The position numbers and the translations under genes are program-made. A DNA stretch of 15,001 nucleotides from IMG/VR virus record IMGVR_UViG_2698536395_000029; one strand, 5' to 3'. The notes beneath the pieces were generated by a model. The model searched no databases, was not told the DNA's origin, and was given only the letters and a program-made list of their open reading frames with translations. This document shows positions 5,730-11,152 of this stretch, piece after piece; positions within the stretch are counted from its first letter, which is position 1; the number at the start of each line of letters is the position of its first letter. This stretch comes from a virus (taxonomy: Duplodnaviria; Heunggongvirae; Uroviricota; Caudoviricetes).

Positions 5730-6302
5730 TCACACCCCCGCTAAATCCGCCCACCAGCGGCGATTATCCGCACGCGGCATTTTTTCGGGGTGCTGCTCGT
5801 ACAGGGAGCGGCGGGCCAGCTCCACGCCGGAATCAGGGTAAGCCGGTACGGATGTGACGGTAATTTCGTACAGTTCCGCAACCAGCACGGTGCGCACGCA
5901 TGGATCTGTTGTGGTATCCCATACATCCTTACGGGAACGAAAGCCAAAGCTCATGCCGGATATATCACCACGTTTAACCAGTTCGATAACGTCCCGCCCT
6001 GTGCTGGTATCCGGTGGGGTCAGTTCAAAGCGTAACCCTGTTTCGTCCTCTTCCAGTTTCAGCGTGCCGGAACGGGTACGCCCCAGCAACATGCTGTGGT
6101 CATGCTCATACAGGCCGCGAACGTCATTACCCGCCGCAAGCCATTCAGTAAACGCTCCCCGCTGGAATTTTTCGTAAAACTCCCCCCATAGCAGCTCTGA
6201 AAGCTTATCCCAGCGAACAACGTAGCCTGTAAGCGTGTTGCTGGCGCTGGTGGTGATTTCCGATGACCGGATTTCCATACTCTTCATAATTTTTTCACCC
6301 AT
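5730..6302 (-). CDS. Prohead maturation protease (HK97 / U35-S78 family)
   Basis: 190 aa; motifs GYVVRWDKLS...GAF...LYEHD typical of HK97 prohead protease; lies directly after the capsid gene. Start may be ATG 6302 or ATG 6287. Confidence 0.8.
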   Translation of the reverse strand: MGEKIMKSMEIRSSEITTSASNTLTGYVVRWDKLSELLWGEFYEKFQRGAFTEWLAAGNDVRGLYEHDHSMLLGRTRSGTLKLEEDETGLRFELTPPDTSTGRDVIELVKRGDISGMSFGFRSRKDVWDTTTDPCVRTVLVAELYEITVTSVPAYPDSGVELARRSLYEQHPEKMPRADNRRWWADLAGV

Positions 6303-6311
6303 AAAACACTA

Positions 6312-6331
6312 AAGGGGCTTTTAAGCCCCTT
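6312..6331 (-). terminator. Stem-loop with T-rich tail between capsid and protease (likely partial terminator/attenuator)
   Basis: AAGGGGC-ttttaa-GCCCCTT; on the minus strand the hairpin is followed by TTTAGTGTTTTAT, 10 nt after the capsid stop. Confidence 0.4.
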
Positions 6332-6341
6332 CTGTATGCTG

Positions 6342-7499
6342 TTAATCGTCGTCCTGTGGCAGTTCCAGAATCTTGATCGCGTTCGAATCCACCACGCCAC
6401 CGCCTAAATATTTCTGCGTGAAAATTTTGATGAAGCCCGGCTCTGTGAGGTTGTCCGGTCTGGTGCGAACACCTGTTTCGTGATCAACAATGTAGTAACC
6501 GCGTTTGAAGTCACCCAGGGCAATAACGTTATCAGGCATAAACTCCAGATATTCGACCGGAAGGCCCAGCAACGTATCAGGATCACCCGCCTGTAAACGG
6601 TCGCGCCAGATATAATCACCGTTCGCGTTCTTCACCTTCTGAAGTTTTGCCGCCGTCGTGGAGTTAACCACCCAGACCGCGTTTTTGCGGTATTTTTTAC
6701 GTAATGCAAATTTCAGGTCGATCAGCGGGTCCGCAGATGTCCACGCCAGAGATTCGGAAGGTTTAATTACCTGCAACGTACCAAAATCACGCTCTTTGTC
6801 GTTCTTCTCTGCACGGGGTACGGATAAAAAACCTTTTGCTTTTTTGTCACCGTCGCCCACAACCAGATCGCTTTCTTCGGTTTCCGTGAAGGTGTCGCCA
6901 ATCTCACCCGTCAGCCATGAAAGGATGTCCACATCGGAAAAATCCACGATTTCCTGTGTGGTGCGCGGGTACGCATAGACCGGATACAGCTTAATGCTCA
7001 CCTCGTTAATCTGCGGGGGGCTGGTCTGTTCGCGTGCCTTACCCTCTTCACCGTGGTTAACGGTCGCACCGCCAGCGGAAACAAGCTGCTTAAACTCGTT
7101 GCTGCTGATTTTCTTCACGGTACAGATGCGGCGCATGGTGGATTCATCCGCCAGCATTCGCATGATTTCGGTGTTCAGTTCAGGGATAACGGTATAACCA
7201 CCATCAGCGGGAACGCCTGTACTTAATGCGCGGGTTTCACCTGTCAGAATGTAGTTGCGTAGTTCTGCGGGGTCAGTGGTCTGACTGCTTTTACCTGGCT
7301 TGCTGCGCTCTTCGTCTGCAATGGCTTCAAGGCGGGAAATGTCTTTATCGAGGGATTCAGCTTTAGCGCGTAATTCGTCAAATTTTGCGCCCTCAGCATC
7401 GTTAAGACTGCGGTTTTCTTTTTCCGCGTTCTCCAGCATGTCGCGCATCTGATTTTTAATGGCGGTTTTCTGCTGGCGTAATTCGATTATTCTCGGCAT
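6342..7499 (-). CDS. Major capsid protein (HK97 fold) with N-terminal coiled-coil delta/scaffold-like region
   Basis: Start set at ATG 7499 (MPRIIELRQQ); the track's upstream start at 7547 is GTG. The charged, helical N-terminal ~100 aa followed by a ~280-aa body is the HK97 pattern. Confidence 0.85.
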   Translation of the reverse strand: MPRIIELRQQKTAIKNQMRDMLENAEKENRSLNDAEGAKFDELRAKAESLDKDISRLEAIADEERSKPGKSSQTTDPAELRNYILTGETRALSTGVPADGGYTVIPELNTEIMRMLADESTMRRICTVKKISSNEFKQLVSAGGATVNHGEEGKAREQTSPPQINEVSIKLYPVYAYPRTTQEIVDFSDVDILSWLTGEIGDTFTETEESDLVVGDGDKKAKGFLSVPRAEKNDKERDFGTLQVIKPSESLAWTSADPLIDLKFALRKKYRKNAVWVVNSTTAAKLQKVKNANGDYIWRDRLQAGDPDTLLGLPVEYLEFMPDNVIALGDFKRGYYIVDHETGVRTRPDNLTEPGFIKIFTQKYLGGGVVDSNAIKILELPQDDD

Positions 7500-7506
7500 A
7501 AAAAAA

Positions 7507-7536
7507 GTCCTGGGGTTAAGTAAGGAACTCCAGGAC
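7507..7536 (-). promoter_or_regulatory. Hairpin whose 3' arm contains the capsid Shine-Dalgarno, followed by T7 and the capsid ATG
   Basis: Minus strand reads GTCCTGG-(16 nt)-CCAGGAC-TTTTTTT-ATG; the AGGA of the putative SD sits inside the stem. Confidence 0.45.
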
Positions 7537-7713
7537 GCGGCAAACACTCAACCGTTTTTCATAAGGAAATCAGTAATCGCACCGATCGTTTTCCCGCCTG
7601 GTAATGAATATTGGCGAGCACATTAACAGGCGGGAAAGTGGCCCCAGCGTCCTGGCACCACGGGCGAGAATACTCATGATTCAGTTCGGGTAAAATATGC
7701 CGATCCTGTCAGT

Positions 7714-7739
7714 GAACAACGTGGAACAACCACGAACAA
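7714..7739 (+). promoter_or_regulatory. Phased hexamer array GAACAA-cgtg-GAACAA-ccac-GAACAA (10-bp period) upstream of the head operon
   Basis: Hexamers at 7714-7719, 7724-7729 and 7734-7739, about 215-240 bp upstream of the capsid ATG. Confidence 0.5.
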
Positions 7740-7750
7740 ATAATTTACAA

Positions 7751-7779
7751 AAAATGACAAAAAGCCGGATTGCTCCGGC
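7751..7779 (-). terminator. Rho-independent terminator after the 74-aa orphan gene
   Basis: Minus strand GCCGGA-gcaa-TCCGGC followed by TTTTTGTCATTTT; 12 nt after the stop at 7791. Confidence 0.6.
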
Positions 7780-7790
7780 TGTATGCGTGC

Positions 7791-8015
7791 TCAGTCCCTG
7801 ATCCCTTTCAGAAATTCTATCAATGCATCTATCTGTTCAGGATTTACCGCCAGCATTTCACCGGATAGAGCACATCTAACAAAACCATGCTGATCCTTTT
7901 CAATCAGTGCGCCCGTCTCCAGGAATGCGCGGTAATCATTGATGCTCATCGTCTCCATGTTGTCAGCATGGTATTTATCACGCTGTTTTAATATCTCATC
8001 AAATTTCATCGGCAT
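7791..8015 (-). CDS. Hypothetical protein (74 aa), orphan gene bracketed by two near-identical terminators
   Basis: ATG at 8015 with AGAGGA SD 8 nt upstream (MPMKFDEILKQ...); the track's longer start at 8093 has no SD. Acidic, no family recognised. Confidence 0.55.
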   Translation of the reverse strand: MPMKFDEILKQRDKYHADNMETMSINDYRAFLETGALIEKDQHGFVRCALSGEMLAVNPEQIDALIEFLKGIRD

Positions 8016-8110
8016 TGTTTTTTCCTCTGTTGTGTCTGTTTGTTTCAGATAGTAACTATGCCAGACCGTGACGAAAACCCGGTAATGCGCCATACCGTTT
8101 CAACTGGTGC

Positions 8111-8133
8111 AAAAAAAGCCGGATTTCTCCGGC
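8111..8133 (-). terminator. Rho-independent terminator after the PerC-like gene
   Basis: Minus strand GCCGGA-gaaa-TCCGGC followed by TTTTTTT; nearly identical to the hairpin at 7764-7779. Confidence 0.65.
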
Positions 8134-8140
8134 TGTGTGA

Positions 8141-8413
8141 TTAGCTGTCCTGGTAATTGCGCCATATTTCATCACCAGCACCATCTATCCCCATTTCGGC
8201 ATAAGTGCGATCGACTGCCTTTTTCAGGTCTCCGTAATTATCCGGTGGCTCCGGTGGCCTCTGTGCCTTCCTGCAACATTCCAGCCGTCGCATCGTAACC
8301 TGATGCCGTTCCTTGTCTGTCTCCACCAGCAGCATGACTTCACCCCATCGCGCCGCCGCCCTCCGGTAAAAGCCTTTCGCCTCGAGTTCTTCCGCTATGC
8401 GGTCATGTACCAT
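8141..8413 (-). CDS. PerC-family-like transcriptional regulator (90 aa)
   Basis: Start taken at ATG 8413 (MVHDRIAEEL) with GAGGGGG SD. The motif AEELEAKGFYRRAAARWGEV...MRRLEC resembles the PerC/Pch signature (A..LE..G.WRRAA..W). From memory. Confidence 0.5.
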   Translation of the reverse strand: MVHDRIAEELEAKGFYRRAAARWGEVMLLVETDKERHQVTMRRLECCRKAQRPPEPPDNYGDLKKAVDRTYAEMGIDGAGDEIWRNYQDS

Positions 8414-8423
8414 CGCCACCCCC

Positions 8424-8834
8424 TCAGAACGGAATACCGTCACCGTAAGGGTCATCGCCTCCCGCTGGTGGCTGATTACCCTGTGTGCCTGTGGTTTTGC
8501 GTCTGTTCCCGCCAGGAAGTGCCGCACGGGCACTGATTACGCTGTCTGCAATAACCTGATAACCCTGCCGCGTTTCCCCATTCTGTCCGGTCCACTGGCT
8601 GACCTGCATCGTGCCGGATACGCTGGCAACGTCGCCTTTTTGATGTTTAGCCAGGAAGTCGGCCTGCTTACCAAATGCGATGACCGATAGCCATAACGTC
8701 GCCTGCCCATCCTGCGCCTGACTACATGGCAGCGATACCGCCATACGCGCCAGCGTCATCGGTGTACCCTTGCTGGTCTGTTTTACCTGCGGGTCGTCCA
8801 CCAGCCGCCCGTAAGCTGCTATCTGTGCTGTCAT
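8424..8834 (-). CDS. ssb: Single-stranded DNA-binding protein
   Basis: 136 aa; the OB-fold core aligns with E. coli SSB landmarks (LWLSVIAFGKQADFLAKHQKGD vs [22 protein letters not shown]); Gly/Pro/Gln-rich linker; acidic tail DDPYGDGIPF like the SSB DDDIPF tip. Confidence 0.8.
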   Translation of the reverse strand: MTAQIAAYGRLVDDPQVKQTSKGTPMTLARMAVSLPCSQAQDGQATLWLSVIAFGKQADFLAKHQKGDVASVSGTMQVSQWTGQNGETRQGYQVIADSVISARAALPGGNRRKTTGTQGNQPPAGGDDPYGDGIPF

Positions 8835-9109
8835 GATTCCACCTCTCCGGTTTTAACGTTGATGGTTGTTACCTGTTCCGCTTCGGCAATCTCCCGCTCT
8901 GTCAGCGTGGCAAAATTTGCCGCCGTCGTGGTCATGAATGCGCTTATCAGTTCGGGATGTGCTTTCGCGTATCCTTCCCCCGCGTGGCGGTCTATCGTTC
9001 TGATTGCCACCTTTAAAGCGTGCTCTGTCATGTCTAACGCGCGATATTTCGGTTCTGTTCTGTCTCTGCGTTTTTTGAGTGATTTATTAAATTTCCCTGA
9101 AGTGTGCAT
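8831..9109 (-). CDS. Hypothetical protein (92 aa), first gene after the origin
   Basis: ATG at 9109; stop overlaps the SSB start (ATGA). No family recognised. Confidence 0.5.
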   Translation of the reverse strand: MHTSGKFNKSLKKRRDRTEPKYRALDMTEHALKVAIRTIDRHAGEGYAKAHPELISAFMTTTAANFATLTEREIAEAEQVTTINVKTGEVES

Positions 9110-9158
9110 ATTTATTTTTACCCCCTCGTTTAAAAAGTTTTGAGTTGTGCCTCCCCTT

Positions 9159-9382
9159 GTCTACCTTATCTACCTTAGTGGCCCTCATACCAGTAATGGC
9201 GCGGCTTTCAGCTGGGTAGAGTGCTTTTATCCACTATCTACCCCGTGTCTACCTCCCTGTCTGATTCAGGTAAAATCAGGTAGAGAGGGTAGATAGTGGG
9301 TAGACAGTAAAAAAAGGCTATCTACCTAACTTAATGCACTGAATTAAATGTATTTTTCTTTACTCAGGTAGACAGGGTAGAC
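9159..9382. repeat. Iteron-type replication origin
   Basis: At least 11 copies of the 7-mer GGTAGA[C/T/G] or its complement in both orientations (9159, 9168, 9215, 9236, 9247, 9279, 9288, 9299, 9320, 9367, 9376), often at 9-11 bp spacing, flanking an AT-rich stretch at 9330-9366. Lies directly downstream of the primase stop. Confidence 0.75.
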
Positions 9383-9397
9383 AGCAATTACAAAAAA

Positions 9398-11152
9398 TTA
9401 TAAAAACGCGTCGCACTCGTCTGTTGTTATTGCGTTAGTCTGCGTTACTCCCTTAACTTTCCGCGTAATATATTCATGTCCGTAAACTTTCGCGGCTGGC
9501 TTCATAGCCTTGCCAAAGTCATTTACGTTTAGCGGTTTGCTCCTGCCTGCGTACGCCATAAACGCCAGATAGACGCGGTAAAGGCTGTTTCTGGTCGTGT
9601 ACTTCACTGAATCGCCACCGCCGCCCATCATCAGGCCGCGTGCTTCCTCCAGAAAATTCAGGAACTGGCAAAACTCAATAACCGGATCCGTCTGTTGCTT
9701 TATTGCCAGAGCTTCATCACCGTCACGCTGTTCCAGTAGTAAAGCCCGTGCCTTCTCAGGGTCGGTAAAGTTCGCCAGCAATCGGCGGATAATGACAGGG
9801 ATTTCAGCCGCGATCTTTTCCGGTAGCTCCCTGTCTTTTTCGGCCTCACTGACGATATTGTCGAAACGGAAAATCACGCGACGACGTGCCACACCTCCGG
9901 CCCGTTCGGTGAATATCATCGGGTTATTGTTGGTCGCCAGCACCACCGCCCTGATTACAGCCGTGAAACGCTTTTCGTATTTCGGGTTAATTTCCACGGG
10001 GTCACCGCCCGTGATTTTCTTGATGCCCGTTCCTTCGCCTGTATATTTCGGCTGGTCAGCCAGGACGATAAGACGACTCCCGACAACCTGCGCACGTCCA
10101 CCAGCATCATCAAGCGATGTCATTTCAGCGCTTACCGTGTTCTGTTTCCCTGCCAGAAGGCTGGCTATGTGCGTGAATGTACTTTTACCGCTCCCGCCGT
10201 CTCCGGTGGCCTCAATAAACATCTGCCAGTCGTACCGGTTCGCCATAATCATGTACAGCGCGGCACATATACGCATCATCTTGCGCGGGTCTTTTCCGGC
10301 TGCGTGCTCAAGCCATTTATGAAAGTTTGGCGCGTTATCGCGGATGTTCTCCCCTGGTGCTGGTGGCGTGTACTCAATGCCGTTGTGCGTGGTGATCCAG
10401 TTCTCCGGCGTGTGCGGGGAAAATTCCCCCGTTTTCAGGTCAAGCGCACCATTGGCGAACGGCAGCAAATCGCCGGACGGCTCGCCCATTGGTTCGGCAA
10501 TAACTTTTAACGCTTCCACGGCGTTATTGATTACGCGCTTGCTGAAAGTGGCCCTGTGCTCTGAATAGATCGCCACCATTTCGCGGCTAAGTTCCATTGT
10601 GCTGACCGGACACCATACCCCGCCGCGCCATACGTGAACGATTTCACTTTCAGGATGTACGCAAACGCCATCAAAGCGATCGGCAAGCAGCTGCGCGCGC
10701 TCACTGTCCGCCATCTGCGAAAGTTGCGCCTTTTGCTTTACCGGAAGCTCAATGACCAGACCATCAGAAAGATTCTGGCGCTCACGAGCCAGATATTCGC
10801 GCCAGTTCTCCACCTTCTGACCGTGCATACCATCAGGGTAAAAATTTGCATCCTGTACGCCTGCCGCCGCCAGCTTCTGACCAATCGCCTTTATCATTAC
10901 TGGCGCAAGATATCCGGCCCTGAATATGCGCACGGATTTTCTGCCTTCCGGCACAATTTGCAGCTTATCCAGTTCGGATAACTGCTGCTCCCCAAGCCAC
11001 ACAGGAGGCTCATTATCTCCGGCCATACGCGCGTCATGTTCCTGCCATTGTTTTGCGTGTGACCAGGCATCACTACCCGCAAAAATAATGACTTCTGTTT
11101 CTTTGTGTTTTATGCCGCGTGACTGCTGTTTTACGTTCGGTGCCAGTTTCAT
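9398..11152 (-). CDS. Primase/helicase replication protein (P4-alpha-like; D5-type NTPase C-terminal domain)
   Basis: 584 aa; Walker A GDGGSGKST at ~residue 318 with the surrounding D5/P4-family helicase context; N-terminal primase-like region; iteron origin immediately downstream. Confidence 0.85.
   Translation of the reverse strand: MKLAPNVKQQSRGIKHKETEVIIFAGSDAWSHAKQWQEHDARMAGDNEPPVWLGEQQLSELDKLQIVPEGRKSVRIFRAGYLAPVMIKAIGQKLAAAGVQDANFYPDGMHGQKVENWREYLARERQNLSDGLVIELPVKQKAQLSQMADSERAQLLADRFDGVCVHPESEIVHVWRGGVWCPVSTMELSREMVAIYSEHRATFSKRVINNAVEALKVIAEPMGEPSGDLLPFANGALDLKTGEFSPHTPENWITTHNGIEYTPPAPGENIRDNAPNFHKWLEHAAGKDPRKMMRICAALYMIMANRYDWQMFIEATGDGGSGKSTFTHIASLLAGKQNTVSAEMTSLDDAGGRAQVVGSRLIVLADQPKYTGEGTGIKKITGGDPVEINPKYEKRFTAVIRAVVLATNNNPMIFTERAGGVARRRVIFRFDNIVSEAEKDRELPEKIAAEIPVIIRRLLANFTDPEKARALLLEQRDGDEALAIKQQTDPVIEFCQFLNFLEEARGLMMGGGGDSVKYTTRNSLYRVYLAFMAYAGRSKPLNVNDFGKAMKPAAKVYGHEYITRKVKGVTQTNAITTDECDAFL

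Follow-up and report, generated by a model that had tools for sequence, protein, structure and literature searches.

A conserved gene for a small acidic protein, bounded by twin predicted terminators, in a satellite of the EcCIEDL933 family

Capsid-forming PICIs (cf-PICIs) are a widespread and recently recognised class of phage satellites, in which several conserved small genes still lack a known role. Two general notions bear on such genes: morons, in the sense of Hendrix and Juhala, are extra genes with their own promoter and terminator that lie between genes adjacent in relatives, and segments bounded by short direct repeats or hairpins can be deleted through recombination or replication slippage. 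The prototype cf-PICI is EcCIEDL933 (element Sp7 of O157 Sakai), for which alone helper-dependent induction and transfer via helper tails have been shown experimentally (bioRxiv 10.1101/2022.09.08.507074). Reportedly, neither the titre nor the plating of the helpers HK106 and HK446 is reduced by EcCIEDL933, and when every gene of its putative packaging module was mutated, transfer of the mutant in 'hypothetical gene 1792' was severely reduced, not abolished (bioRxiv 10.1101/2022.09.08.507074). A variable cargo region adjoins the packaging operon in this satellite family, and immune systems are expected before and after that operon; the cassette described here lies at the border of this region (bioRxiv 10.1101/2025.02.11.637232). 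The cassette contains a gene for a 74-aa acidic protein, of which no description by name was found in the accessible EcCIEDL933 literature.

Gene organization of the island

The window, i.e. the whole stretch of 15,001 nucleotides analysed here, is 99.987% identical to the genome of E. coli strain 20.1 (NZ_AP027170), with one gap and one mismatch across 15 kb. All of its genes are on the minus strand and belong to an island of ~15 kb inserted in tqsA, between the two halves of the gene. According to Pfam and RefSeq, the island begins with genes for an integrase, an HTH regulator, an Icd-like protein, a DUF4222 protein, and a D5-type primase, followed by an iteron-rich origin, a 92-aa ORF, SSB, a PerC-family regulator, and the cassette with the 74-aa gene. 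The last part comprises an HK97-type capsid, an S78 protease, portal, closure, and connector proteins, an HNH protein, TerS, and TerL. Pfam matches were obtained for the capsid, S78 protease, portal, TerL, and D5 primase, all of which are listed in the RefSeq annotation of NZ_AP027170. TerL is annotated there as frameshifted, although its ORF is intact in the window. The main features outside the cassette are as follows.

1159-2820, TerL (intact 553-aa ORF in the window)
6342-7499, minus strand, HK97-type capsid gene (ATG at 7499)
8141-8413, minus strand, PerC-family regulator gene (PchE type; Pfam PF06069 PerC, E 7.6e-44; 273-nt CDS in RefSeq), the last gene before the cassette
9110-9398, 3' of the primase gene, replication origin with many GGTAGA(C/T)A iterons
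9398-11152, minus strand, D5-type primase gene

The island thus combines an integrase, a regulator/replication module, and its own HK97-type head and packaging genes; its size is within the ~10-18 kb known for cf-PICIs, and no tail or lysis genes are annotated. Judged by this gene content, the window is a cf-PICI of the EcCIEDL933 family. The genes of EcCIEDL933 are arranged in the same way: int, the HTH regulator gene, the replication genes, the origin, ssb, perC, and the 74-aa gene are followed by those for the capsid, the protease, the portal, the closure and connector proteins, HNH, TerS, and TerL. Its capsid is 99% identical to that of the window, and its 74-aa protein is 100% identical. 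The two elements differ in their integration sites (roxA/phoQ for EcCIEDL933, tqsA for the island of the window), in the presence of a DUF927 protein in EcCIEDL933 where the window has the D5-type primase, and in perC, the window allele of which is 92% identical to the EcCIEDL933 copy. This order of genes confirms that the cassette is located between the replication/regulatory block and the head genes, as was originally predicted.

ECs1588 in Sp7 of O157 Sakai has been named PchE (PMC2323221). It was equated with the perC copy of EcCIEDL933 by gene order and not by sequence comparison. Expression of pchE is reportedly low in uninduced O157 cells and drops upon SOS induction (PMC6265319, PMC7369912).

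Twin terminators and presence/absence of the 354-nt module

The cassette and its flanking leader consist of the following features.

7500-7755, minus strand, leader of the capsid operon, directly 3' of the cassette; joined to the perC terminator in islands lacking the cassette
7756-7785, minus strand, predicted distal intrinsic terminator (stem 7780-7763, GCAA loop, TTTTTGT), containing the downstream repeat copy (7759-7785); mosaic boundary of the head module
7791-8015, minus strand, gene for the 74-aa acidic protein (phrog_1957), the E. coli allele of a satellite small-protein family
8016-8109, minus strand, leader of the 74-aa gene, with AGAGGA at 8028-8023 and no recognisable sigma-70 promoter
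8110-8139, minus strand, predicted proximal intrinsic terminator (perC terminator; stem 8134-8117, GAAA loop, seven-T run), containing the upstream repeat copy (8113-8139)

The original prediction, which was made from the DNA sequence of the window, had placed two hairpins sharing about 20 of 21 nt at 7764-7779 and 8118-8133. The terminator scan identified both on the minus strand, namely AGCCGGAGAAATCCGGCT followed by TTTTTTT at 8134-8117 (proximal) and AGCCGGAGCAATCCGGCT followed by TTTTTGT at 7780-7763 (distal), and their similarity proved to extend further than had been noticed: the two are parts of a 27-nt direct repeat (7759-7785 and 8113-8139; 25 of 27 positions identical) with a spacing of 354 nt. 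This is the sole direct repeat of such quality in the window, and none of 200 first-order Markov simulations gave one. In each predicted hairpin, five of the seven stem pairs are G-C, and the loop is a GNRA-type tetraloop (GAAA in the proximal and GCAA in the distal copy). Their folding energies are -12.6 (proximal) and -14.4 kcal/mol (distal), with z values of about -3.5 against shuffled sequences, and the G+C-rich stem-loops are followed by runs of seven and five U, respectively, as in Rho-independent terminators. The two predicted terminators are therefore copies of one 27-nt sequence.

The 354-nt unit from repeat to repeat is a module consisting of a 101-nt leader, the 74-aa gene, and a terminator, placed 3' of the perC terminator. 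When related islands were compared, as had been proposed with the original prediction, this unit was found to be present or absent as a whole among islands with 99% identical capsid genes. A megablast search of the region 7560-8540 against 5,426 complete E. coli genomes identified 211 genomes with the full arrangement in an HK97-type context, and other genomes gave two-piece matches with a span shorter by exactly 354 nt. In L001, for example, the 3' flank of perC leads through one hybrid hairpin into the capsid leader, and exactly 354 nt are missing; the perC terminator is joined to the capsid leader in this locus and in ~20 IMG/VR loci. A search for the empty junction indicated ~145 complete E. 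coli genomes with an empty site, a figure extrapolated from 60 evenly spaced rows, and such sites, as apparent repeat-mediated losses, amount to natural knock-outs of the gene. The cassette as such is found in 539 and this type of perC in 729 of the 5,426 genomes. Among IMG/VR loci of the E. coli type, which were sampled through the capsid gene and thus independently of the small gene, 18 contain the 74-aa gene and 21 lack it. In the loci lacking the gene, one hairpin precedes the capsid ATG by 281-283 nt, except for L024, in which there was no strict pattern match. Overall, the cassette is missing from about 40-50% of the E. coli islands that have this capsid module.

Three different alleles of the perC 3' flank were distinguished, each of which occurs both with and without the cassette, and GAAA and GCAA loops are found in either copy of the hairpin as well as in the single hybrid copies. 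These observations suggest several independent events with at least two crossover points. The pattern resembles deletions between short direct repeats or hairpins, in that a 27-nt repeat bounds a precise deletion, one hybrid copy is left, and several crossover points are seen. Recombination or replication slippage between the directly repeated terminators would delete the gene precisely, and homologous exchange between islands could restore it; together, these two processes would explain the recurrent presence/absence polymorphism. The twin terminators themselves may be a by-product of module shuffling. A different kind of deletion was observed in a Shigella flexneri locus (L010, ~9560-9900), in which the start of ssb is joined to the 3' end of perC, and the terminator, the small gene, and the second terminator are intact.

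The order perC-terminator-gene-terminator was also found, with 98.6% protein identity, in a different island in ~300 STEC genomes. This island encodes a RepA-type helicase, its head module is limited to a major capsid protein, a decoration protein, and TerS, and the island is located between roxA and phoQ, which is also the site of EcCIEDL933. The homology between the window and this alternative island ends exactly at the distal hairpin, indicating that head modules have been exchanged at the distal terminator, which is the exact boundary of head-module exchange among islands. The roxA-phoQ sites of NZ_CP018250 and EDL933 are thus occupied by two different satellites that have a common backbone (int, HTH, DUF4222, ssb, perC, the 74-aa gene, and a 93-aa last gene) and unrelated head modules, one HK97-type with portal and terminase and the other with capsid, decoration protein, and TerS only.

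The cassette was originally thought to be transcribed independently. Its own terminator was confirmed (the distal hairpin at 7780-7763 with its T run), but independent transcription was not: a scan for sigma-70-like promoters identified none on the minus strand of 6000-9500, which includes the 101-nt leader, nor upstream of the relatives, and the homologues in L060 and L067 follow perC without a terminator. In these two loci, a divergent allele (46-52% identical) is located 67 and 13 nt after perC, respectively, with its own ribosome-binding site; a single terminator lies 3' of the small gene and is followed by the same conserved capsid leader. This arrangement suggests that an operon of perC and the small gene is ancestral near E. 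coli and that the proximal terminator of the window is derived. Transcription of the 74-aa gene may thus belong to that of the early/perC unit, with the gene at its end; polymerase would either read through the proximal terminator or start at a weak non-consensus promoter, and the distal terminator would insulate the capsid operon. Read-through may be low because the proximal terminator looks strong (7-bp G+C-rich stem and seven U). An activator-dependent promoter of the 74-aa gene could also lie beyond the reach of a consensus scan. The 45 nt of the leader nearest the ATG are invariant between alleles. A riboswitch or attenuator in this leader was considered and dropped, as its fold is no more stable than those of shuffled sequences (z 0.08), and so was an sRNA at the cassette, as no Rfam family reached its gathering score in the window and a hit to RsmZ near the cassette was at chance level. 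RefSeq lists a 42-aa ORF on the minus strand at 8056-8184, which starts within perC and crosses the perC terminator. Its product is named 'hypothetical protein'; in EDL933, the ORF is listed as a pseudogene of 'trigger factor' with a frameshift. This annotation is probably spurious.

The capsid leader contains three TTGTTC repeats with a 10-nt spacing (7714-7749, minus strand) directly after the distal terminator. These repeats are conserved in L067, the capsid of which is only 69% identical, and occur alone in other E. coli genomes. The region may be an activator-dependent promoter or operator (TTGTTC-N16-TATTTT, matching the consensus at 8/12 positions) or a site shared with the excision machinery. 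Further downstream, the leader contains a 17-bp inverted repeat (7590-7637; 94% complementary, 14-nt loop) and, before the capsid ATG, a second hairpin (GTCCTGG...CCAGGAC, ~7508-7537). A similar long inverted repeat with a different sequence occupies the same place in Klebsiella islands (L005, ~9215-9275). An identical 15-nt copy of the TTGTTC-repeat sequence is present at 252-286, near the island end by tqsA.

A small-protein family at a conserved position

As originally predicted, a single small acidic gene with a good ribosome-binding site of its own lies between the hairpins: its product has 74 aa, a mass of 8.6 kDa, and a pI of 4.87, and AGAGGA at 8028-8023 is located seven nt 5' of the ATG. 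The start codon assignment was confirmed by the Met1-Pro2 that is invariant across relatives. Ratios of synonymous to non-synonymous changes between E. coli alleles were 7:5, 8:2, and 12:4, indicating that this is a real gene under purifying selection.

The gene had been described as an orphan, which is correct in so far as no match was found in Pfam, NCBIfam, or PADLOC, but not with regard to relatives. The protein matches the profile of phrog_1957, the function of which is unassigned, over its full length (residues 1-74, E 7.1e-42), and relatives are present in many genera. A word-based search detected only proteins of E. coli and Shigella with at least 92% identity, an exhaustive HMMER scan detected relatives of ~80 aa with 35-42% identity, and a profile search collected 161 proteins, including those from Klebsiella, Citrobacter, Serratia, Raoultella, Enterobacter, Pectobacterium, and Hafnia, all of which are hypothetical and none of which has a Pfam domain; the Pfam scan of all family members gave scattered sub-threshold hits only. 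The family is uniformly acidic (74-87 aa, pI 4.5-5.6) and has 19 invariant residues over at least 10 genera of Enterobacterales. Its best-conserved stretch, D-H-H-x-F-V-R-x-x-L-S-x-E-x-x-A-x-N-x-E-Q, contains many invariant polar residues. A literature search by accession and phrog retrieved no match.

Structure prediction, which had been suggested with the original prediction, yielded a confident AlphaFold2 model (mean pLDDT 83) with the order helix-helix-three strands-helix, but no fold match for the 74-aa protein; a winged-helix fold, in particular, gave no structural match. A search of PDB sequences with the 74-aa protein alone gave chance-level matches. The family profile weakly matched residues 83-121 of N.BspD6I, the DNA-recognition region of this nicking endonuclease (E 0.002), through the motif D-x-x-G-(F/Y)-L-R...G-x-x-L-A. 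A profile match of this level was considered insufficient for inferring a relationship to N.BspD6I.

Relatives with 38-47% identity were found in the same position and on the same strand in Klebsiella, Serratia, Phytobacter, Kosakonia, Enterobacter, Pectobacterium, Kluyvera, Leclercia, and Shigella. In each case, an HK97-type capsid-to-terL module lies 0.3-1.9 kb downstream of the homologue and shares its strand, and in all six loci checked for repeats the homologue lies immediately 3' of origin iterons, which are of two types. Where the window has its GGTAGA(C/T)A origin, iterons of the GTGAACAC or GTGCGGCAT type are present in relatives from other genera. Seven of eight islands with 66-70% identical capsids carry a relative. 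No relative is present in the true-phage loci L073-L078, the capsids of which are 26-32% identical, and a tblastn search with two family members against 50,697 phage records gave no match. By these comparisons, the family is found in phage satellites, directly 3' of the origin or of early genes and upstream of variable cargo and the capsid operon, and is absent from the phage records searched; a single gene thus represents a family that occupies a fixed position across Enterobacterales.

With relatives in the same slot in at least 10 genera, residence of the gene looks ancestral and the empty sites look like deletions. Recent insertion, as had been proposed for the cassette, is therefore not borne out, and the 74-aa gene does not appear to be a recent moron-type add-on of sporadic occurrence. 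Acquisition from a different lineage would also be compatible with the lower G+C content of the cassette and with its separate leader.

In other genera, diverse cargo, mostly on the opposite strand, separates the homologue from the capsid gene. In Kosakonia cowanii (L012, 10373-11861), this cargo includes PDC-M32A/B, a candidate defence pair of PADLOC (E 3e-139 and 4e-49); the cargo of other genera is unrelated and unannotated. The 74-aa gene thus resembles the cargo/defence hotspots of satellites (PICI, P4-like) in bordering a variable region before the packaging operon; it differs from them in being the conserved flank rather than variable cargo and in having no match to a defence model.

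The rule that the gene follows the origin is not absolute, because there are exceptions in Arsenophonus and in IncF plasmids. In pArsFIN15 of Arsenophonus nasoniae (L082, 15,977 bp), the homologue is located directly after terL. This circular element, deposited as a plasmid, has an HK97-type head/packaging module, a VapE-type primase, a plasmid replication initiator, and a RelE/HigA toxin-antitoxin, and may be a plasmid-like capsid-forming satellite. Outside satellites, a distant 72-aa homologue lies among metabolic genes in IncF plasmids, namely beside genes for a choloylglycine hydrolase, a malic enzyme, and an anion permease in pUMNK88_K88 (L080, 8995-9213) and ~20 similar plasmids. CP061267 was rejected as a further plasmid homologue, as it carries roxA and phoQ and is apparently a piece of chromosome in a plasmid record.

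Possible roles of the 74-aa protein

We consider it somewhat probable, on balance, that the 74-aa gene is an old but dispensable gene of the satellite backbone that is lost via the twin terminators, is transcribed at the tail of the early/perC unit, and encodes a protein-binding modulator. The gene would thus be an old resident of the backbone and not a new insert. Its product may bind another protein of the helper, the host, or the satellite in a non-essential modulatory role, rather than regulate through DNA binding or act in defence, a guess drawn from its acidity, small size, conserved polar residues, and dispensability. Among possible functions, we rank a protein-binding modulator first and a packaging accessory second, followed by a regulatory and then a defence role. 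A bolder version, that the protein founds a satellite family manipulating a helper or host protein and that the twin terminators form an on/off switch by which the gene is shed and regained, is speculative and appears rather unlikely; such a manipulator may be, for example, a counter-defence factor, a nuclease inhibitor shielding the replicating satellite DNA, or the partial-transfer 'gene 1792'. If the protein does act on a helper or host target, it would be a new component of satellite biology; otherwise, the locus would represent ordinary mosaic architecture.

An accessory factor that improves the assembly of capsids, the packaging of DNA, or the joining of tails but is not strictly needed is an unlikely alternative. 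In about ten genera, the 74-aa gene and the HK97-type capsid-to-terL module are tightly linked, and in pArsFIN15 the homologue directly follows terL; furthermore, one unnamed hypothetical gene of the EcCIEDL933 packaging module gave a partial defect (bioRxiv 10.1101/2022.09.08.507074), and the 74-aa gene could be this gene 1792. However, two other small hypothetical genes, one in the gap between HNH and terS and the other after terL, are equally good candidates for gene 1792, the 98.6% identical allele is also found in E. coli islands with the unrelated capsid/decoration/TerS-only head module, the 74-aa gene is missing from about 40-50% of the E. coli islands whose capsid genes are 99% identical, and the tblastn search of phage records detected no phage-encoded relative. 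A universally conserved core head-assembly factor, which the original prediction had named as a finding that would speak against it, thus applies in one half: the gene is widely conserved beside the head module but is dispensable in E. coli.

Smaller still is the probability that the cassette is an independently transcribed moron for helper interference or for protection of the host against other phages, as was originally proposed. Like a phage moron, it is an extra unit between genes adjacent in related islands, with its own terminator and an atypical base composition (G+C 44% vs 55% for perC, 58% for ssb, and 51% for the capsid gene); the neighbouring slot carries variable cargo in other genera, including the PADLOC candidate system, and immune systems are expected around the packaging operon (bioRxiv 10.1101/2025.02.11.637232). 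Unlike a moron, it has no detected promoter and is operonic with perC in L060 and L067, and in other genera it is the conserved flank of the variable region rather than part of its cargo. The proposed helper-interference or anti-phage function also failed to gain support: no defence model of PADLOC-DB matched the 74-aa protein at E values up to 0.1, no fold match was obtained, and EcCIEDL933, which encodes the identical protein, reportedly leaves its helpers unaffected (bioRxiv 10.1101/2022.09.08.507074). Moreover, a 74-aa protein without an enzymatic signature would hardly be expected to act as a defence effector on its own.

A small DNA-binding regulator with a wing-like beta-hairpin, which would control the capsid-operon promoter at the TTGTTC repeats or the adjacent cargo genes, is slightly less probable again. 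The weak match of the family profile to the DNA-recognition region of N.BspD6I is consistent with such a role, as is the position of the gene just upstream of the conserved repeat-bearing leader.

A chance ORF between two terminators that yields no protein, which would accord with the lack of functional annotation anywhere, is scarcely credible and is effectively refuted by conservation (38-47% identity and 19 invariant residues over at least 10 genera), the mostly synonymous changes between alleles, the conserved ribosome-binding site and Met-Pro start, and the confidently predicted fold.
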